Below are positions 4,227 to 63,378 of a DNA stretch of 64,000 bases, piece by piece (the first letter of the stretch is position 1; each line of letters starts with the position of its first letter). Below the pieces are notes generated by a model, which worked only from the letters and a program-made list of their open reading frames with translations, ran no database searches and was not told where the DNA came from. Made by a program: the position numbers and the translations under genes. The DNA comes from an uncultured Candidatus Saccharibacteria bacterium (lineage in GTDB: Bacteria > Patescibacteriota > Saccharimonadia > Saccharimonadales > JAGQNJ01), in NCBI GenBank assembly GCA_964510945.1, contig CAZEED010000001.1, positions 98,774 to 162,773 of the forward strand. Direction: 5' to 3'.

Positions 4227-6701
4227 ATGCACCCAAATTCATCTGACTTTCAAGAGTTCTTAAATCACCTGACGGAAAACGCCCTGCAAAGTTTGCGACA
4301 CGCCGACGCTATTGCTCGTAGTGCAAATAGTCCGTACGTAGGTACAGAGCACCTACTGCTCGGTGTATTGGCGCAGGAAGGGTCGTTAGGCTCAAAAGTG
4401 TTAGTTGACGCAGGCGTAACTCTTGATAAAGCTCGGGTTGCGCTAAATCTAAGCCCAAAGAATATCATAATTAATATGGGCGCTAAGGGGCTGAGTGAGA
4501 CCGCAAAATTGACATTAAAAATGGCCTACGATGTAGCACAGGAATTTAATCAAGAGTTCTGCGGGACAGAGCATATTGTGTATAGTATTTTGACTCAGAA
4601 GAATGCTCGAGCCACAGTTTTGGTTAGAGATATGAGAGTTGATGTTGATCGACTAATAACTGAGCTAGAACAATTTTTAAATAAGCAACAATATGATGAG
4701 AACGGCAGTCCGGGTTCAACAAAGCGAGTTAAAAAAGGCAGAAAAACTGCTTTAGACTTTTTTGGCACAGATTTGACCGCTCAGGCAAAAGAAGGAAAGC
4801 TTGATCCAGTAGTTGGTAGAGACCCACAGATCAGACGACTAATCACTATTTTAAATCGTAGAACCAAAAATAACCCAGTATTGATCGGTGAGCCAGGAGT
4901 AGGAAAAACTGCAATCGCTGAGGGGCTTGCTCAAAGAATAGTAAGCGAGGACGTTCCTGACGGTTTGTTGGACAAAAAGATAATAATGCTCGATCTAGCG
5001 GGTATGATCGCAGGGACTAAATACAGGGGCGAATTTGAAGATCGCCTGAAGAAAGTCATGAATGAACTAGAACGAGATAGGAATATTATAATTTTTATCG
5101 ACGAACTTCATTTGATTGTTGGTGCAGGCGCCGCTGAGGGTGCTATGGATGCCGGGAATATTCTAAAACCGGCACTCGCTCGAGGTAAGATTCAGATGAT
5201 TGGTGCTACGACGACAAATGAATATACTAAGCACATCGAGAAAGACGCCGCGTTAGAGCGTCGACTACAGCCCATTCAAGTGCCAGAAACGAACGTTAAT
5301 GAAACAATAGCAATCCTAAAAGGTCTGCGTAAACATTACGAAGCTTTCCACGGAGTAACTATTAGCGATGAAGTTATAACGGATACTGTTCAGCTAGCTA
5401 AAAGGTATATTAATGACAGATTCATGCCTGATAAAGCAATTGATCTTATAGACGAGACTGCGGCGCATCTTCGCCTAGATAAAGGTAGAACACCACCGGA
5501 AGTGAGAAGGCTTAAACAAGAGCTGAAGTTAGTTAATACCCGTATTGAAGATGCAGTTGATGCGGAAGATTACGAGAGAGCCGCCCAAAATAAACAAAGG
5601 GCCAGTCAGATTCAAGAAGAGCTCAAAAAACTAAATTCAAATGAAAAAGTAAACAAAAAAATTGTTATGAATAGCGAGGATGTCGCCGGAACAGTTGCAC
5701 GTATGACCGGTGTACCAGCTAGAAAAGTTATTAGATCTGAAGCAAAGTATCTGATGAACCTAGAAAAGTCTTTAGGTAAGTATGTTATAGGTCAAGACGA
5801 GGCCGTTGAGGCCGTATCTAAGGCTATTAGACGAAATAGATCAGGAGTTGGTAGCGAAAAACGGCCTGTTGGCTCATTCATTTTCCTAGGACCAACAGGG
5901 GTAGGTAAAACGGAACTTGCTAGAGTGCTGGCTAGAGAATTTTATGGATCAGAAGAAGCGCTAGTAAAAATAGACATGAGTGAATTTAGCGAACGACATA
6001 CTGTTGCGCGTTTAGTAGGTGCTCCTGCAGGATACGTTGGATACGATGATGGCGGACAATTAACTGACAAAATCAGACGTCAACCTTATAGTTTAGTTTT
6101 GTTTGACGAGATTGAAAAAGCTCATCCTGAAGTTTTTAACATGCTACTACAAATATTAGAAGATGGACATTTAACTGACGCCAAAGGACGAAAAATTGAT
6201 TTTACTAACACTATAGTGATTATGACTAGCAATATCGGAGCCGAAAAACTCCAGAAAGAAGCGTCATTTGGCTTTTCGGTAAACACTAGCAAACAATTAG
6301 AAAATCTCGACGAGCTTCACAAAGCCAATAAAGATAAGGTGCTAGATGATTTGAAGAAAATGCTACGTCCAGAACTGCTGAATAGAATCGATAAAACAAT
6401 CGTATTTAGAGCTTTAACGAAAAAAGATATTATTCGAATACTTGATCTTCAGGTTGATGAGTTGAAAGAGCGTTTAGTAAAGCATGGTCTTAGCGTTAAA
6501 CTGACGCCTCAGGCTAAGCAATACATGCTAGACAATGGTTATGATGCCAAAAACGGTGTCCGACCGCTCAGACGGCTCCTGCAAGACACGTTGGAGGACT
6601 ATATTGCATCAGAGCTATTGTCTGACAAATATAAAAAAGGCGACATCATATCTATTGATACAAAAAAACACGATTTGACGTATAAAGTAGCTACTGAATA
6701 A
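4227..6701 (+). CDS. clpC: ATP-dependent Clp protease ATPase subunit ClpC-type (Clp_N, two AAA+ modules)
   Basis: Two Walker A motifs ([16 protein letters not shown]). N-terminal Clp repeat domain. Short middle domain typical of ClpC rather than ClpB. Confidence 0.88.
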
Positions 6702-6725
6702 GCATTTTTAGTTATAATAGATAGA

Positions 6726-7694
6726 ATGAATTCCAGAAAGAAATCATTTGAGATATTCATTGTTTTCTGTTTATTGTTGGTTGGATTAGGATTTGTCTTT
6801 CGACAGGATTTGATGGATTGGTACACGCTCAGGACCTATGACCCTCCGGCATCTATTGAAAAAATAACAAAAACCAATAAATTCACCGAGTCAGGAAAAA
6901 GATATTTTTATGTAGCTCGTCCCGCGATCGTTAGAGGGGCACAATTTAATCAAAAGTGTCGGGATGGTTTGCCGACAGAGTTTTCTATAGTCCTGGGGTG
7001 TTATATCAATACTGACGGTATCTATCTTTTTAGAGTCACGGATAAGCGATTAAATGGAATTGTAGAAGTAACAGCAGCACATGAAATGTTGCATTCGGCA
7101 TACGACCGATTAAACAGTGATCAAAAAAACGAAGTAGATAAAATGTTGCAAGAAGCTTACCAGGGAATAAAAGACGTTAGGATTAAACGAACGATCGAGC
7201 AATACAAGCAACAAGATCCCTCGAGTGTCCCGAACGAACTACATTCTATACTCGGAACAGAAGTCGCAAATTTGCCCGAAGATCTCGAAAATTATTATAA
7301 GCAATATTTTAAAGATAGGACCACTATTACAGATCTGTCGTCTAGCTATGAATCAGAATTTAGCTCAAGACAGAATAAGGCCGACCAAATTGGCTTGCAG
7401 CTTTCGGGCCTTAAGTCTGAAATTGATTCCGCCCAGCAGTCAGCTAATCAAAAGCGCGCCCAACTCTTAGGTGATAAAAGTTCGTTAGATGATTTATTGG
7501 CGAGCGGAAAAACAGACGAGTATAATTCGCGTGTCGATTCATTCAATAACGAAGTCGCTGTTTACAACGCACTCGTTAAGCAAATTCAAACAAAAATAAA
7601 GTCGTATAACTTGCTGGTAGCCGAGTACCAAGACGTTTCTGTAGAGATAAATGATTTATATCAATCTATAGACAGCCGTCCAAAGTCCCTGTAA
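6726..7694 (+). CDS. Hypothetical membrane-anchored protein with HEMLH motif and C-terminal coiled-coil region
   Basis: N-terminal TM helix (IFIVFCLLLVGLGFVF). HEXXH-like HEMLH. Q/S/L-rich heptad-like C-terminus. Confidence 0.6.
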   Translation: MNSRKKSFEIFIVFCLLLVGLGFVFRQDLMDWYTLRTYDPPASIEKITKTNKFTESGKRYFYVARPAIVRGAQFNQKCRDGLPTEFSIVLGCYINTDGIYLFRVTDKRLNGIVEVTAAHEMLHSAYDRLNSDQKNEVDKMLQEAYQGIKDVRIKRTIEQYKQQDPSSVPNELHSILGTEVANLPEDLENYYKQYFKDRTTITDLSSSYESEFSSRQNKADQIGLQLSGLKSEIDSAQQSANQKRAQLLGDKSSLDDLLASGKTDEYNSRVDSFNNEVAVYNALVKQIQTKIKSYNLLVAEYQDVSVEINDLYQSIDSRPKSL

Positions 7695-9064: not shown

Positions 9065-12000
9065 CTACAGAGGGTACGTGAAGCTGATACTACTGTATTT
9101 TCCATTTGCCGTTACTGTAGCGGTATAGCTCTTGCCGATTTCTACATCTCTGAGTAGTGATTTACTTGACGTCGAAGAACAACTATTAGGTCCGCTAGTT
9201 TCTTTAAGACAAACTTGGTAGGTTGTGCCAGACGGCAGTGTTGAGCCTGACCACTGAATTTTTACTTTGTCGCTACCTTGGTCGGAAACTGACAGTGAAC
9301 CAACGCTTGATCCGTCAGATGATTCACCGCTAATAGTTGAAGAATCGGTTGCGTCATACAATACGCTATCGATTACTGTTGCTGTCACAGTCCTTGAACC
9401 ATTAAAGTTTGGTTTGTAGTTTTTATATATCACTGTGCCTGGCTTTGTAATAGTGAAAGAACCTCCAGCAATCTGAGAACCGTTAACAGAAAAGGTAACT
9501 TTGCCTTTAAATCTCTCGCTAGACAAAGGATGTGTGCCTTGGCTAATCGTTGCAACTAAATTATAGCTATTAGATCCTTGTTTTTGAACAGACAAGCTAA
9601 TCTTAGGCTTACTGTCGCTACATTTATGTACGTCATCCTGTTGACTCGAACTATTTCCTCCAGCATCGACATAAGTGTCACCCGAGAAACTAGAAGCGTC
9701 GGTTTCGGTAAGAGTTTTCTTAGCTCGCGTTGGTGTACAGCTTGTAGCTATTTTGTTGGATACTATATCAATAGTCTTTTTTGAAGCAGATTTCTTTTTG
9801 TTGTTTTGATACCAACTAGGGAATAGATCTGTTGCTGGGCTTGGCTCTACAGAACCTATACCGACATGTGTTCTAATTACAAAGGCAGGATCTTGTTTTA
9901 CACCCGCTGGTTTTGTCCAATCTTTTGCCTTTTTACCATCGTGAGCTGATTGCATCCATCCTTGCCAAATCGGCTGGGTCATATTCTCCATTGTGCCACT
10001 CATTTCAACTTGTCTAGTGTGATGCCCAACCCACACGCTGGCTGCATATTTAGATGAGTAGCCTGTCATCCACCCGTCTTTTCCGTCGTTAGTCGTTCCG
10101 GTTTTCATGGCAAATTTCCAGCCATTAGGTCCAATCTGAGGTTTTCGTCCAGCTGGGAAGTAACTAGCATTAGGATCAGATAATATGTTGTTAATAATGT
10201 AAGCCGCGTCTGCTTTAACAGCTTGTCTTGATTTACCTTTTTCGTCTCGACTCCAGTCGTATACTGGTTTTGATGTTGAATCTTCAATCTTTAAGATATA
10301 GGTCTGTGGAATCCATTTTCCGTTTCTAGAAAGAGAAGCTTGAGCGTGTACATGTTCGTCGAGTTTAAGAAAAGCTCCATCACCAATCGCTGATGACGCT
10401 CCACATTGGATTTCTTTTGTCAGCGCTTGGTTACCGTAACATTTATAGCCACTCTCTAATCCAAGGTTCTCAGCAGTCTTTATAGTTTTATCAACACCGT
10501 TAATAAGCATTGCTTTTACCGCTGGGACGTTCCTAGAACCACCTAAAGCATAGCGAATTGTTAGTGGTCCCGGATATCGAAAATCGTAATCGTAGAGGCA
10601 GTTACCGCTTCCTCGTGGTGGAGGTAGCCCTTTATTAGTACAATCATAGCCTTCAAGTGGGCCTTGGGTGTCATATAACACTGAGCCAGCCCCAAAATTG
10701 TTCTGGTTATCTATTAGCGATACATAGTCGTATGGTTTAAAGCTTGATCCGGGAGGTAGTTTAGTTTGAGCATAGTTTAGTTGTCCGTATTGCTTATTAG
10801 TAAAATCGTTACCGCCAACTAGTGCTACCATTTGACCTGTTTCTACGTCTTCAGCTGCGATTGCAGCGTTATCTCCACCTTGAGCATAGATTTGACCCAT
10901 ACCTGCGGCAACTTGTTCTTCAGCCTTTTTCTGAAGTCCTAGATCAAGAGAGGTAGTAACTTTCCACCCACCAATGTCGGCAGTTTCTGAAGCAATTTTA
11001 TTCTGGATTTGGTTTTTTGCTGCTAGTACAAACCATGGTGCTTTAATACCAGCAAATTTTGCTTTTCTAGGCTTAACAGTTTTTAGTACATCTACTTTCT
11101 TGGCTTTGTCTCGTTGGGCCGATGTAATCATATTTTGTTCTACCATGAGGTCAAGAATATAGTGTTGTCGATTTAGGAAAGCTTCTTTTTCAAAATCTTG
11201 GCTATACGGTGAATAGTATCTTGGTGACTGTGGAATAGCCGCGAGCATCGCAGATTCTGCAATGGTTAGCTCGTCGGCTGATTTATTAAAGTAATCTCTA
11301 GCTGCGGCTTCAGCCCCATACTCGATTCCACCATAGGGCGCAGTATTTAAATATCCAGCTAATATCTCTTGTTTTGAATAACTTCTCTCTAACTCAACGG
11401 CTAGGATAACTTCTTTTACTTTTCTGCTAACAGTTCTTTCTTGAGTCCAGTTTTGGGTTAACTTAACTAATTGTTGAGTGATAGTTGAACCACCCTGCGT
11501 ACTACCGCCGAAGGCGTTATTCCAAGCGGCTCTAGAAATACCTCTAACATCGAACCCTCCGTGTTTGAAGAAGTCTTTATCTTCTATAGCAACAGTCGCA
11601 TCTTTTAGGTTTTGGGAGATCTTGTCATCTTCTACAGGTATTCTTTTTGCAGCGTCATAATCTTCCCACAGCAGCACTTTACCGCTTCGATCGTAATACT
11701 GAATACTACCGCCTAAATTACTACCAGTAATTGATCGTAAGTCGGGTAGATCTTTACGAAAGTATGCAAACATACCAACCAAAATTAAAAAACCAGCTAT
11801 AAAACCAATACCCATAATTTTTAGGGCCATTATCCCACCTTCACGACTGAACCAGTATTGATAAAGTCTTTTTGGGTGAAGGCGATATACGAATCGCTGT
11901 AGTTTACCTTTAGGCATTCCAGCTAATCGCTCGGCCTTGGACCTTGATTTCTGATCATTTCTAATTTTTAACTTATCAGAGATACTTCGATGAATTTTTA

Positions 12001-60780: not shown

Positions 60781-61437
60781 ATGTTAGAACTATTATTTGT
60801 TATAGGATTTGGAGTTATCGCTTATCGGAGCGCTACAATTCGAGACGAGGATTTATCACCACTTCCGCGAAAACTTAGCGACAAACTAGGTCAATTATGG
60901 GGCATAGCCCACCAAGGGATGAAAGATAATAGCCTAATTCGGGCAGAAAAAGCCTTATTGACTATCCTTAAAATTGATAAAAAGAACGCTGCTGCCTATA
61001 ACCGTCTAGGAATCTTGTATGCAAAACAAAAAGAATACAAAGACGCCATAGATTGTTTTGAAATTGCTTCGAGCATCGAAGTTAGCCCGTCTAGTTTGCA
61101 CAACCTAGGTTTGATTTATTACGAAACAGAAAATTATGAAAAAGCCGCGACTGCGTTTGAGCAAGCTTTAAAACTTGAAGATAATCTTGCGGCAAGACAC
61201 GTAGCATACGCAAAAGTCCAAGAAAAATTAGGCAATAATAAACTCATGTTTGCAGAGCTAGAAAAGGCCGTAGAATTAGAGCCTACAAAAGAATCATTAA
61301 AATATCTTCATCAGGCTTATGAAAATAACGATATGCACGAACAAGCAAAAAGTATTCGTCGAAGACTAGACCGCGCGACCGTATCAAAAACAAAACCAAA
61401 AAAGCTTATTCGTCCAAAACGCAGAGTTGTTATTTAA
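60781..61437 (+). CDS. TPR-repeat protein with N-terminal TM anchor
   Basis: N-terminal hydrophobic helix followed by 3-4 TPR-like repeats. Confidence 0.6.
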   Translation: MLELLFVIGFGVIAYRSATIRDEDLSPLPRKLSDKLGQLWGIAHQGMKDNSLIRAEKALLTILKIDKKNAAAYNRLGILYAKQKEYKDAIDCFEIASSIEVSPSSLHNLGLIYYETENYEKAATAFEQALKLEDNLAARHVAYAKVQEKLGNNKLMFAELEKAVELEPTKESLKYLHQAYENNDMHEQAKSIRRRLDRATVSKTKPKKLIRPKRRVVI

Positions 61438-61611
61438 CCCCTGTTCTGATAAAATTTACAGGTACTTTTCGCTGTTTTAACCTAGCTTTTCAACCTAACG
61501 ATTCGATTTATTCGGCTCGAGCGATTGAAAGGCTAAGAAAAAGAAGCGACTAGAGATTGAAGGCAAATATTCGTAGAATGTTAGCGGAAAGTCGACCGTC
61601 GGTTCTGACGA

Positions 61612-61688
61612 GCCGCCTTAGCTCAGTTGGTTAGAGCGACGGTTTTGTAAACCGTAGGTCGTCGGTTCGAATCCGACAGGCGGCTCCA
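61612..61688 (+). tRNA. tRNA-Thr (anticodon TGT), encoded CCA
   Basis: Acceptor gccgcct/aggcggc. Anticodon loop tttgtaa. T-arm ggttcgaatcc. Confidence 0.9.
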
Positions 61689-61803
61689 AAAGAGACGTAT
61701 GCAACTTTATGTTACAGGCGGCTCCACAGAAAACTTCTACTAGTTTACTGGAGAGAAGTTTTCGAGGAAGCAACTGCAGCCCGAAGGGCTACAGGCGGCT
61801 CCA
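61676..61803 (+). repeat. Three direct copies of the 13-nt tRNA-Thr 3' end (ACAGGCGGCTCCA) at 61676, 61714 and 61791
   Basis: Exact 13-mer ×3. Spacers of 25 and 64 nt contain small hairpins. Confidence 0.6.
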
Positions 61804-61918
61804 TCCTTCGTCGCTGAAGCTATGAAGGATAAACATATAGAATGCCATGCGAGAGCATTCTAGAACATTTGAGGTGAGTTCAGAGAAGTGTTGACGACCC
61901 GAAACTCGGGTCGTTTAC

Positions 61919-62004
61919 GCAGGGTTAGTGAAGCGGTCAAACACGGCAGACTGTAAATCTGCTGGCTTATGCCTTCGTAGGTTCGAATCCTACACCCTGC
62001 ACCA
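61919..62004 (+). tRNA. tRNA-Tyr (anticodon GTA), long variable arm, encoded CCA
   Basis: Acceptor gcagggt/accctgc. Anticodon loop ctgtaaa. Long extra arm. Confidence 0.9.
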
Positions 62005-62011
62005 ACTATAG

Positions 62012-62037
62012 AATCCCGCATTTGTGGGATTTTTTAG
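62012..62037 (+). terminator. Terminator-like hairpin (atcccgca/tgtgggat) + T6 after tRNA-Tyr
   Basis: 8-bp stem with one G-T pair, then TTTTTT. Confidence 0.5.
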
Positions 62038-62143
62038 TTGGTCCTGATTAATAAATTCGAACCGACAGGCGAGAACAGTCGGGGACTGTTTGAGTTATAA
62101 ATATTTATAGCGAGATGCTTTAGCTCTCGAGCGGATAAATCAA

Positions 62144-62166
62144 TTCGAGTCCTACACCCTGCACCA
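62144..62166 (+). repeat. Duplicate of the tRNA-Tyr 3' end (22/23 nt) 140 nt downstream of the gene
   Basis: ttcgagtcctacaccctgcacca versus ttcgaatcctacaccctgcacca. A partial tRNA-Thr-like 3' fragment also lies at 62045-62060. Confidence 0.6.
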
Positions 62167-62220
62167 ATTCTGTAAAGTATTAAGGACGTCAGAACCGCGT
62201 CCTTTTGTTATAGTAGAGTC

Positions 62221-62379
62221 ATGAATTGTCCTAAATGCAACAAACCGATGCTCAAAGTTCGCTCAGAAATTACCAACAACCTCAAATCAGGTAAAGACTT
62301 TAAGGAGTACAATAAGTTCACATATGAATGTAAAACTGATGACATCTGGGTAACTACTGAGACTCCTGTATCAAAATAG
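62221..62379 (+). CDS. Hypothetical 52-aa protein with CPKC motif
   Basis: MNCPKCNKPM..YECKTDD. Only 3 Cys. Below the track cutoff. Confidence 0.3.
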   Translation: MNCPKCNKPMLKVRSEITNNLKSGKDFKEYNKFTYECKTDDIWVTTETPVSK

Positions 62380-62429
62380 ATCGTTATAATTGCTCAAAAG
62401 TTGCTAGAACCATAGCAAAACATAGTAAG

Positions 62430-62795
62430 ATGAAGTATGTAATGGTTGTTTCAGAAGTTGTTATTCATCACAAAGCACGATTTAATGTTGCTGTGCCAAT
62501 TACAACTGACGTAACAGGTGAATGTCTAGATATTGTTCAGGCATATTCAGATTCAATTCCCTCATTGGGAATACCTACATTAGAACATGTGATTCCTGGA
62601 CTAGTAGAAGTAGCATTAGTATCGTGGGAAGAAGCTAGATATAGCAAGAAAGTAATAGATTCATGGGTAAAAATTGGCGCGGGTAGGATATCGTTATCTG
62701 AACTATTCTATTGCCAACCCATACCTCATGATCCAAAAATTACGTATAATAGGGATGAACACTTCAAGCAATTAGAACTAGGTTTGCCAACATAG
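62430..62795 (+). CDS. Hypothetical protein (121 aa)
   Basis: ORF in the tRNA island. No recognisable motifs. Confidence 0.4.
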   Translation: MKYVMVVSEVVIHHKARFNVAVPITTDVTGECLDIVQAYSDSIPSLGIPTLEHVIPGLVEVALVSWEEARYSKKVIDSWVKIGAGRISLSELFYCQPIPHDPKITYNRDEHFKQLELGLPT

Positions 62796-62859
62796 CCCCG
62801 CCTGTCTGGTCAGAGGTAAAACATCCATACATATCGATTTTAAGTGGTACAATCAATAC

Positions 62860-63060
62860 ATGGAAAGAATTTCGATCCAAAAAACACCAATTGAAACAAA
62901 GTCCGATGGAGATCACGATACTTTATGGCTCGTAGAACCTAGCGAACAAGCTATAGTGGCTTTCGAAAGAAGAGAAGCCGAGATAATCATGGCAGAAACA
63001 CCTGACCCAGTCTTTGATGCAGATCACTGCATTGGAAGCCTGGTGCTAATGCCGACATAG
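62860..63060 (+). CDS. Hypothetical acidic 66-aa ORF whose stop overlaps tRNA-Thr(GGT)
   Basis: ORF only. Overlaps the tRNA 5' end by 10 nt. Confidence 0.25.
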   Translation: MERISIQKTPIETKSDGDHDTLWLVEPSEQAIVAFERREAEIIMAETPDPVFDADHCIGSLVLMPT

Positions 63061-63125
63061 CTCAGGGGTAGAGCGCATCCATGGTAAGGATGAGGTCCTG
63101 GGTTCAAATCCCAGTGTCGGCTCCA
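63051..63125 (+). tRNA. tRNA-Thr (anticodon GGT), encoded CCA
   Basis: Acceptor gccgaca/tgtcggc. Anticodon loop atggtaa. T-arm ggttcaaatcc. Confidence 0.9.
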
Positions 63126-63171
63126 AAATTTATACTTGAATATATCAATCTAATCTGTTAATCTATACTTC

Positions 63172-63378
63172 ATGGCTAAAAAAACAGGTAAACGAAAAAC
63201 TATTGGACTTGTGAGCGAACTCTCAGGTCATCGTCATTATTACACCAACAAGAATCAACAAAATACTCCGGACAAATTAAGCATCAAAAAATACGATCCA
63301 GTAGCCCGAAAACACGCACTTTATACAGAGACAAAGAAGAGTTTGGGCCGCAACGAAGTCAAACCTCGTAAAAAATAG
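63172..63378 (+). CDS. rpmG: 50S ribosomal protein L33, Cys-less form, with short basic C-terminal extension
   Basis: YYTNKNQQNTPDKLSIKKYDPVARKH matches the L33 core. No CxxC pairs. Confidence 0.82.
   Translation: MAKKTGKRKTIGLVSELSGHRHYYTNKNQQNTPDKLSIKKYDPVARKHALYTETKKSLGRNEVKPRKK

Follow-up and report, generated by a model that had tools for sequence, protein, structure and literature searches.

What leaves displaced copies of tRNA 3' ends beside intact tRNA genes? Such fragments are routinely taken as the boundaries of prophages or genomic islands. We examined this question in a 64,000-nt stretch of a Candidatus Saccharibacteria (Saccharimonadales) genome (the whole stretch is referred to here as the window), in which the genes for tRNA-Thr(UGU) (T1), tRNA-Tyr(GUA), and tRNA-Thr(GGU) (T2) lie between a gene encoding a TPR-repeat protein and rpmG. 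The original prediction for this locus interpreted its repeated tRNA ends as the footprint of serial integration and excision of phages or integrative and conjugative elements (ICEs). The repeat units proved to be the right-hand ends of structured, gene-less, hairpin-rich cassettes of 32 to 160 nt, each starting directly after a CCA. Our preferred reading, to which we give an even chance, is that miniature cassettes inserted site specifically at tRNA 3' ends (i.e., after the CCA) and have since persisted in the tRNA transcript as hairpins. The original prediction is thus partly supported, in that the target at the tRNA end is duplicated without an island.

Copied tRNA 3' ends

The comparative frame consisted of 80 species-level loci retrieved with the TPR protein (67 to 95% identity) and examined with 10-kb flanks (i.e., approximately 20 kb per genome); almost all of them are labeled Candidatus Saccharibacteria or Saccharimonadales. 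Close strains were sampled by exact-protein look-ups, which yielded contigs with identical TPR and rpmG proteins. We called tRNA genes with ARAGORN and Rfam, folded sequences with RNAfold, and assigned domains of open reading frames (ORFs) with Pfam and PHROG.

The 13-mer ACAGGCGGCTCCA, which spans T1 from the final 2 nt of its T-stem through the 3' acceptor strand and the discriminator to the CCA, occurs exactly three times as predicted (at 61676, inside T1, and at 61714 and 61791). With up to two mismatches allowed, four matches were found in 64 kb (0.49 expected), a number reached by none of 100 shuffled sequences. The 3'-terminal 23-mer of tRNA-Tyr likewise recurs at 62144 to 62166 with one mismatch (22/23; 0.00 expected), and the match extends to 23/24 with the next base (family D1). 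The copied tRNA-Tyr block begins in the T-loop and extends to the 3' end, a known integrase sublocation and a point in favor of the classical explanation given below. A Thr-like fragment had been placed at 62045 to 62060; the fragment exists, but it lies at 62056 to 62071 (an offset of approximately 11 nt), and its sequence (TTCGAACCGACAGGCG) equals T1 positions 61666 to 61682 (T-loop to acceptor) minus one T. The triple-repeat arrangement is not an assembly artifact, since it was present in five independent assemblies (L212 to L215 and L218).

Across the window and the 80 loci, the terminal 12-mer recurred downstream in direct orientation within 700 nt for 26 of the 211 tRNAs, with zero upstream direct or downstream inverted recurrences. 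Twelve-mers from the anticodon arm, the D arm, and the 5' end recurred downstream for 0 to 2 of the 211 tRNAs, and those spanning the T-loop recurred because neighboring tRNAs have that sequence in common. The identity between copy and tRNA always terminated at the CCA. All copies were 32 to 200 nt from their own tRNA, and no copy at a greater distance was found within the 10-kb flanks. The length of the copied block is characteristic of each cassette family (12 to 13 nt in B, 23 nt in C1, 14 to 19 nt in C2, 20 to 22 nt in C3, and 25 nt in C4), as would be expected of distinct insertion systems. In these respects, the repeats resemble copies of a target site left by insertions at the tRNA 3' end.

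An intact tRNA gene accompanied by a displaced 3' fragment is the defining signature of tRNA-gene islands, as set out in the Islander paper (PMC4383910). In the classical explanation, the copies would be attL/attR cores from serial phage or ICE integration by tyrosine integrases, with internal deletions leaving tens of nucleotides next to attR. The absence of any copy beyond 200 nt within the 10-kb flanks speaks against this explanation, as do the structure and distribution of the cassettes described below.

Cassettes following tRNA-Thr genes

Module B, the more widespread of the two cassettes that follow T1 in the window, was found in eight species, and it starts directly after the T1 CCA in L001, L002, L004, L005, L006, L043, and L057. 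Domain 1, a long hairpin, is followed by the conserved motif GAGGA(A)GC and a small hairpin, and the module always terminates in a 13/13 copy of the T1 end of the species that carries it (in L004, the variant ATAGGTGGCTCCA). The two-domain fold was alike in every copy (RNAfold; 10 homologs). In domain 2, GGA(A)GC..CUG pairs with the copied CAG..GCUCC, so that only the final A of the copy is unpaired; a C.A mismatch in the small hairpin is retained in 10 of the 11 copies. A covariance model built from 10 copies and run against 1.35 Mb located module B only directly after tRNA-Thr genes (11 loci) and confirmed two diverged tandem copies after T2 in L043. Stem covariation was strong across species with 69 to 95% protein identity: in an alignment fitted to the model, both sides changed in 13 of the 27 pairs, 88.6% of the cells paired, compared with 29 to 46% when partners were slid, and none of 500 shuffles reached the observed values. 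In strain L213, whose flanks are otherwise 94 to 96% identical to the window, the domain 1 stem carries several compensatory swaps.

The internal strand of module B is an imperfect reverse complement of the copied end, and it tracks the tRNA served. In the T1 copy of the window, the reverse complement of the copied end is TGGAGCCGCCTGT and the internal strand reads GGAAGC-AA-CTG; in the T2 copy of L043, the corresponding sequences are TGGAGCCGTCGT and GGAAGCCGT-T-CG, and the full T2 acceptor stem is present. A-type cassettes show the same kind of complementarity, and in both types the copy is thereby held in a hairpin.

Module A amounts in essence to domain 2 alone, with a hairpin that takes in the copied end. 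Its distribution is limited to strains of the window species and to L007, where its sole homolog forms a tandem array and folds into a 5-bp acceptor-like stem plus a hairpin with UCCA free. Modules A and B of the window are different units and not duplicates of each other, and both are arranged as in the window in L212, L214, L215, and L218. Presence and absence are exact to the nucleotide: L001 and L002 read T1 directly followed by B, and the window reads T1, A plus the 13-mer, and then B. The T1 CCA of L003, L017, and others is followed by TTTAG (module H, described below), and L005, which has B plus the 13-mer between T1 and H, shows this junction after the copy at the end of B. The order is also polar, with A, which is restricted to the window species and L007, adjoining the tRNA and with B, which is common to eight species, lying further off.

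These data bear on three explanations that compete with insertion of miniature cassettes. For the classical one, the inserts are not decaying remnants, since covarying stems are kept across species, and a remnant of the same approximately 64 nt in eight species would need one ancient deletion and later selection. A second explanation is that tandem tRNA duplications arose by unequal crossing-over or slippage, that most of the duplicated gene was lost, and that short-tract gene conversion kept the 3' ends identical. Domain 2 of module B does look like an internally deleted tRNA (i.e., a 5' acceptor-like strand plus the 3' strand), and identical tandem units exist (module A of L007 and the Pro and Thr units of the L251 array described below). 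The hotspot also contains partial tRNA pseudocopies (L019 has a disrupted tRNA-Tyr, and L035 has a 5' fragment). However, only the 3' terminus is kept, at a fixed family-specific length, and internal or 5' fragments are as rare as reported above. Modules A and B of the window are not the same unit, and the non-tRNA parts of module B (i.e., domain 1, GAGGAAGC, and the GCAGCCC hairpin) are common to its T1 and T2 versions, which argues against an independent origin from each tRNA. On the basis of these features, we consider duplication very unlikely.

The third explanation, which has no mobile step, is that the cassettes are vertically inherited host RNAs, i.e., minihelix-like hairpins derived from tRNAs that would serve as signals for processing or stability, as decoys, or as small RNAs. 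The covariation in module B (and in module H, across 22 species), the location of modules A and B within the co-transcribed Thr-Tyr spacer, the free UCCA in L007, the full acceptor stem of the L043 T2 versions, and the concentration of module B in the window clade (6 of the 8 species in a rough TPR tree) all favor this explanation. The original prediction was said to fail if the repeats belonged to a conserved structured transcript in relatives whose island content did not vary; the repeats do lie in conserved, covarying structured elements of relatives, which agrees in part with host RNAs, but the island content does vary. Against host RNAs, the CC of the CCA is paired with GGA in most B copies, unlike in a functional acceptor end. 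The distribution is patchy (module B is missing in L003 and L009 to L011 and occurs at T2 in one species only), and the diverged tandem units of L043 (T2a and T2b) and the combination of A plus B look like repeated insertions. Insert families that are unrelated to one another all terminate in the cognate 3' end, module C may be poorly transcribed because it lies between two terminator-like hairpins, and no Rfam family matched. We regard the host RNA explanation as improbable.

Cassettes following tRNA-Tyr and other structured segments

Downstream of tRNA-Tyr, the order is the tRNA gene, a terminator-like hairpin, approximately 110 nt, the tRNA-Tyr 3' copy, and a second terminator-like hairpin. 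The first of these hairpins (62005 to 62036) was recognized by RNAfold and by reading the sequence, and the consensus terminator scan did not flag it. Terminator-like hairpins after both the live tRNA-Tyr CCA and the displaced copy would be expected if the insert had brought its own, and they are a point in favor of classical integration, for which the Tyr cassette is the best fit and the Thr cassettes are the worst.

Homologs of module C1 follow tRNA-Tyr in L001 and L002, and strain L213 has only the left half of C1 (to 62106). The C2 family follows tRNA-Tyr, tRNA-Trp, and tRNA-Thr(UGU) in various species, C3 follows tRNA-Tyr, and C4 follows T1 and tRNA-Tyr in L035. With module B after T1 in eight species and after T2 in L043, and with C2 after three tRNAs, the cassettes have spread to several tRNAs. 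We also considered module C as the 3' end of a minus-strand integrase gene and rejected this possibility, given stops in several frames when the reverse complement of 62036 to 62166 was read by eye. Likewise, neither signal recognition particle (SRP) RNA nor tmRNA, pieces of which the modules might have been, was detected by Rfam or ARAGORN.

A 34-nt hairpin insert (TCCTTCGTCGCT..AGCTATGAAGGA) follows module B in the window, directly after the CCA of the second T1 copy, and is missing in strain L213. A related hairpin follows the tRNA-Tyr CCA in L001 (11217 to 11260) and L015; the hairpin TCCTYCGTCGCT...AGCTATGRAGGA always starts directly after a CCA.

The remainder of the Thr-Tyr spacer is occupied by module H, which consists of a hairpin with the loop TGCGAGA, then CAGRGARGTGTT, and then a variable hairpin (61894 to 61914). 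An alignment of 22 species (the window, L002 to L006, L009 to L011, L014, L015, L017, L028, L029, L031, L040, L048, L054, L057, L065, L066, and L071) gave a consensus of the invariant loop TGCGAGA(R), TGAGG..TCA-GGGARGTGTT, and the variable hairpin abutting tRNA-Tyr, with many compensatory changes in the stems.

The leader upstream of T1 (approximately 140 nt) is swappable: L217 and L218 carry a different leader despite an identical TPR protein (in the first 120 nt after the TPR gene). A leader of the window type, ending in ..GTCGACCGTCGGTTCTGACGA, precedes tRNA-Tyr in L001 (11031 to 11140). Part of the leader also matches module C in inverted orientation (I4 and I18).

Searches for enzymes, mobile relatives, and similar units

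The original prediction implied an integrase gene and a distant copy of the repeat. The motif screen of the window and of the 10-kb flanks of the 80 species found no tyrosine integrase, and the Pfam summary likewise contained none; no copy more than 200 nt from its tRNA was found in those flanks. The screens for tyrosine recombinases and for Y1 HUH transposases (TnpA) or RAYTs (window and approximately 20 kb per relative, no relevant matches) were crude and do not exclude such genes. The motif screen did not detect an IntI-like ORF either. BLAST searches of the modules against phages and plasmids returned nothing except tRNA-Tyr itself. A scan of IMG/VR with CGAGGAAGC-N3-6-CAGCC gave 120 matches, all of which looked like chance or coding matches and none of which was followed by a tRNA-like end, and a scan with CAGGAGCTTGCTCCGAG gave one coding match with no tRNA nearby. 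Rfam, run in gathering mode and, over 61430 to 62230, in E-value mode, reported tRNAs only and no family for module H or the other modules; weak matches (Plastid-ycf2, SpF41, YrlA, and others) were tRNA antisense or chance. Our literature searches returned general papers on tRNA-gene islands and nothing on cassettes of this kind.

With copies 32 to 200 nt away, no integrase in the screens, kilobase-scale cargo not bounded by repeats, and no phage or plasmid similarity, the repeats do not fit a footprint of integration on the scale of a phage or ICE. The locus demonstrably receives mobile DNA in the form of serine recombinase elements, which is a point for classical integration, but the recombinases present are all of the serine type, and the L016 element, which lies wholly inside the locus, has no tRNA-derived repeat of at least 10 nt before rpmG (the L047 element extends past the flank at its far end). 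Taken together, we consider the classical explanation unlikely.

We also scanned metagenomes for two T1-type 13-mers 15 to 45 nt apart. Of 39 matches, 35 were coding Thr-Gly-Gly-Ser repeats and 4 were linked to tRNAs, on contigs without the synteny of this locus. One unrelated contig (L260) carries a domain-2-type cassette. The L251 tRNA array (Ga0180007_10001339, reverse complement, 4400 to 7210) contains Thr(UGU), Pro(UGG), Pro(GGG), and Thr(CGU), each with one or two units right after its CCA that copy the tRNA from the anticodon loop to the CCA, with the T stem-loop swapped for one common GC hairpin (GTCG-TCCCGCC-NNN-GGCGGGA). Thus, units placed after a tRNA and terminating in its own CCA tail are not peculiar to this genome. 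A Thr-like pseudo-tRNA with a substituted T-arm lies upstream of Thr(UGU) in L251, and units similar to those of L251 occur in L257 and L250.

The signature of an island arises here from structured cassettes that carry no genes and measure only tens of nucleotides, both in Saccharibacteria and on at least four further metagenomic contigs, and tools that call islands could therefore be misled in such genomes.

A proposed mechanism and its weighing

In the mechanism that we propose, a cassette would insert exactly after the CCA and leave the tRNA intact, and a copy of the last 12 to 25 nt of the tRNA, ending precisely at the CCA, would be left at the far end of the cassette. New cassettes would join at the live tRNA end, so that the youngest unit of an array would lie nearest to the tRNA; in the window, A would be younger than B. 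We infer that insertion is enzymatic and site specific; candidates for the enzyme include a tyrosine integrase that would act in trans and a single-strand transposase of the HUH type that would read the hairpin and the complementary guide. Because the cassettes are co-transcribed with the tRNAs, the hairpins and the other conserved stems would be kept by selection, presumably because they bar the extra acceptor strand from mispairing with the 5' strand of the tRNA while it matures and so protect tRNA folding in the shared transcript. Serine recombinase elements also land at the locus on occasion.

Several points weigh against this mechanism. No recombinase or transposase able to move the cassettes was found by the crude motif screens in approximately 20 kb per genome, and no free, phage-borne, or plasmid-borne copy was present in the collections searched. 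Module B lies only by tRNA-Thr and is largely clade restricted, which vertical inheritance under host selection fits equally well. A unit of 32 to 77 nt falls below the size of a classical double-strand circular integrase substrate, and a simple att crossover would not predict that the internal strand and the copy are both re-matched to T2. The covariation of module B comes from an alignment that had been fitted to the model, and the counts of G.U and A.C pairs (13 versus 12) were uninformative for strand assignment. Because the inserts are tiny, gene-less, structurally selected, unaccompanied by an integrase in the screens, without counterparts in the phage, plasmid, IMG/VR, and Rfam collections, and not at the bounds of the cargo, we nevertheless favor insertion of miniature cassettes.

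A bolder suggestion, which we offer tentatively and consider doubtful, is that A, B, the L260 cassette, and the L251 units constitute an undescribed mobile class that would recognize the 3' end of a particular tRNA gene through an internal guide strand beside a hairpin, much as in IS200/IS605 ends, insert after the CCA, be re-targetable between tRNAs, and persist as inert precursor hairpins. If the cassettes are mobile, they would represent a tRNA-end-specific insertion mechanism with programmable target recognition in a lineage with ultra-small genomes. If they are host RNAs, they would be new tRNA-linked structured RNAs, as would the conserved Thr-Tyr spacer motif.

Comparison with known systems

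The cassettes share with the tRNA and tmRNA islands of Islander the intact tRNA, the downstream direct 3' copy ending at the gene end, arrays formed by serial insertion at a regenerated target, a hotspot locus, and exact presence or absence at the repeats (units A and B, among species and strains). Unlike such islands, the inserts here are 25 to 139 nt and not kilobases and form conserved structured hairpins, no integrase or other gene lies between tRNA and copy, and the kilobase-scale cargo is not bounded by a tRNA and a displaced fragment. They resemble CIME-type att-flanked mini-elements and MITE-like elements in being small, gene-less, bounded by target repeats, and presumably moved in trans. 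However, they are far smaller than CIMEs, no partner autonomous element was found in the loci examined, and they are confined to a single site, the covariance model having found none elsewhere in 1.35 Mb.

IS200/IS605 ends, PATEs, and REP/RAYT systems have hairpins near their ends, use HUH single-strand transposition, and insert 3' of a specific sequence. Possible parallels in the cassettes are hairpins near the unit ends, seamless presence or absence, and a position 3' of a specific sequence; both kinds also allow tandem arrays and very small units. The anatomy of domain 2 would fit, with a strand 5' of the hairpin that complements the 3' sequence and tracks the tRNA type and with the unit ending approximately 9 to 13 nt past the foot of the hairpin. 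The cassettes differ in the length of the repeated or recognized sequence (12 to 13 nt versus 4 to 5 nt) and of the pairing (8 to 12 bp versus 4 to 5 bp), the left end here has no room for a guide, and module C and the L251 units lack the guide arrangement.

The tyrT operon of Escherichia coli contains 178-bp repeats downstream of tRNA-Tyr that end in the 3'-terminal nucleotides of the tRNA and are co-transcribed with it. Like these repeats and rtT, the units here follow tRNA-Tyr, end in tRNA 3' nucleotides, and are transcribed with the tRNA. The rtT RNA is mentioned in a preprint (bioRxiv 10.1101/2024.07.17.603846). The Rfam scan of 61430 to 62230 gave no RtT match at E values up to 10, there is no sequence or structure similarity, and, unlike rtT, the present units form diverse families, lie beside several tRNAs, and carry an inverted copy of the tRNA end. 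Integron arrays (attI/attC) are similar in their serial insertion at one fixed site, in the structure-conserved, sequence-variable hairpin that ends each unit, and in a conserved unpaired or mismatched base (here, the C.A mismatch). They differ in that the units here have no ORFs and the repeated core is a tRNA end.

A hotspot for gene exchange

The order of the TPR gene, T1, tRNA-Tyr, T2, and rpmG is conserved in the 80 species, whereas the spacing is not. The spacers between tRNAs range from 1 nt to 7.5 kb: the three tRNAs are 1 to 14 nt apart in L036, L045, and L059, and the maximum gaps are 537 nt (T1 to tRNA-Tyr), 7.5 kb (tRNA-Tyr to T2), approximately 6.9 kb (TPR gene to T1), and approximately 5.4 kb (T2 to rpmG). 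In at least 12 species, the cluster contains an inversion that takes in a single tRNA, two of them, or all three, and contigs often terminate within T1 or just upstream of rpmG. Blocks of one to three tRNAs in inverted orientation with respect to the TPR gene and rpmG were noted in at least 13 species, namely, L006, L012, L015, L029, L030, L053, L055, L065, L066, L068, L069, L070, and L072, and the tRNA order in L049 is T2-Tyr-T1.

As the original prediction had it, small ORFs precede T2 and rpmG at 62221 to 63060; there are three of them (52, 121, and 66 aa). None matched Pfam or PHROG, and their homologs were found solely at the same hotspot (L001, L002, L004, and L006). This cargo sits beyond the tRNA-Tyr copy, and its far end carries no copy. 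Strain comparison, which had been proposed as a check, showed that the cargo differs between strains with identical TPR and rpmG proteins. In L213, a 61-aa ORF and a 476-aa GATase amidotransferase replace it, and the replacement is exact, from 62106 (mid module C) to 63048 (3 nt before T2). In L218, the segment from T1 to tRNA-Tyr is 100% identical to the window. Together with the variable spacers, the inverted tRNAs, and the serine recombinase elements, these strain-level swaps of cargo and leader make the claim of a recombination hotspot well supported. Saccharibacteria are naturally competent, and a cargo swap between conserved anchors would be most simply explained by homologous recombination in such cells. 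Gene exchange at the locus is independent of the cassettes.

The ORFs in the gaps form a mixed accessory set that includes NUDIX proteins (six species), PurF-like amidotransferases (six species), Ham1, HIT, HNH, D-Ala-D-Ala ligase, and more. According to the Pfam summary, the sole recombinases among 109 hotspot ORFs are two large serine recombinases (Resolvase, Recombinase, and Zn_ribbon_recom domains). One (L016, 12444 to 14084, minus strand) abuts tRNA-Thr(GGU), and the other (L047, 10884 to 12620, minus strand) abuts tRNA-Tyr and is accompanied by a Toprim primase-like gene; the open frames of both extend into the tRNA gene. No ORF of this type was present among the hotspot ORFs of the window itself. 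The locus is a clean hotspot, anchored by core genes, at which accessory genes are swapped among close strains; it lends itself to work on gene flow among epibionts with natural competence and might also offer genetics a neutral insertion site.

The acceptor and T-stem of T1 differ sharply between neighbors in the TPR tree (e.g., CTCTGCCGGCTCCA in L009 and GACAGGCGGCTCCA in its relatives). Such differences among L001 to L080 suggest that the tRNA-Thr(UGU) gene itself has been exchanged at the locus.

Features of the locus in the window

The features are listed in Table 1. CCA is encoded in all three tRNA genes, which were the only tRNAs detected in 61430 to 63200 (ARAGORN and RF00005); the 3'-end copies were called neither tRNA nor pseudogene.

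Table 1. Coordinates and supporting evidence for features between the two conserved anchor genes
Feature	Coordinates	Strand	Evidence and remarks
TPR-repeat protein gene	60781..61437	+	Pfam TPR families; conserved left anchor, syntenic in 80 Saccharimonadales loci
Polymorphic leader cassette preceding T1	61470..61611	+	Strain comparison
tRNA-Thr(UGU), T1	61612..61688	+	ARAGORN, Rfam (76.1 bits); last 13 nt (61676-61688) are repeat copy 0
Module A: 25-nt hairpin-forming insert plus 13-mer copy 1 (61714-61726)	61689..61726	+	Exact 13-mer, fold
Module B: domain 1 hairpin (61729-61763), domain 2 hairpin (61766-61802), 13-mer copy 2 (61791-61803)	61727..61803	+	
34-nt hairpin insert	61804..61837	+	Inverted repeat I10
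Module H, structured Thr-Tyr spacer	61838..61918	+	Alignment of 22 species
tRNA-Tyr(GUA)	61919..62004	+	ARAGORN, Rfam
Terminator-like hairpin plus T-run directly after tRNA-Tyr	62005..62036	+	RNAfold, sequence reading
Module C1: Thr-like fragment (62056-62071), tRNA-Tyr 3' copy (62144-62166) at end	62037..62166	+	
Second terminator-like hairpin, after displaced Tyr 3' copy	62182..62204	+	Terminator scan
Variable cargo, three ORFs	62221..63060	+	ORF list
ORF, 52 aa, CxxC zinc-ribbon-like	62221..62379	+	
ORF, 121 aa	62430..62795	+	
ORF, 66 aa	62860..63060	+	Overlaps first 10 nt of tRNA-Thr(GGU)
tRNA-Thr(GGU), T2	63051..63125	+	ARAGORN, Rfam; right boundary of cargo swap
rpmG (ribosomal protein L33)	63172..63378	+	Pfam PF00471, synteny; conserved right anchor

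The stop codon of the 66-aa ORF falls within the first 10 nt of T2, and a homolog in L001 occupies the same position. A conserved protein of 193 to 211 aa with no Pfam match is encoded directly upstream of tRNA-Thr(GGU) in four species (L016, 11835 to 12470; L019, 17958 to 18557; L030, 11290 to 11874; L038, 4700 to 5281); by eye, it looks like an HTH domain joined to a possible homing-endonuclease-like region. Genes for HNH endonucleases are present at the hotspot in L068 and L069. Besides the tRNA 5' fragment in L035, the first two-thirds of a tRNA-Tyr copy were found in L019 (approximately 10810 to 10960), interrupted in the T-arm by approximately 70 nt. Its 3' acceptor strand is missing, and the intact tRNA-Tyr follows closely downstream, so that this copy is a displaced 5' part that mirrors the usual case.

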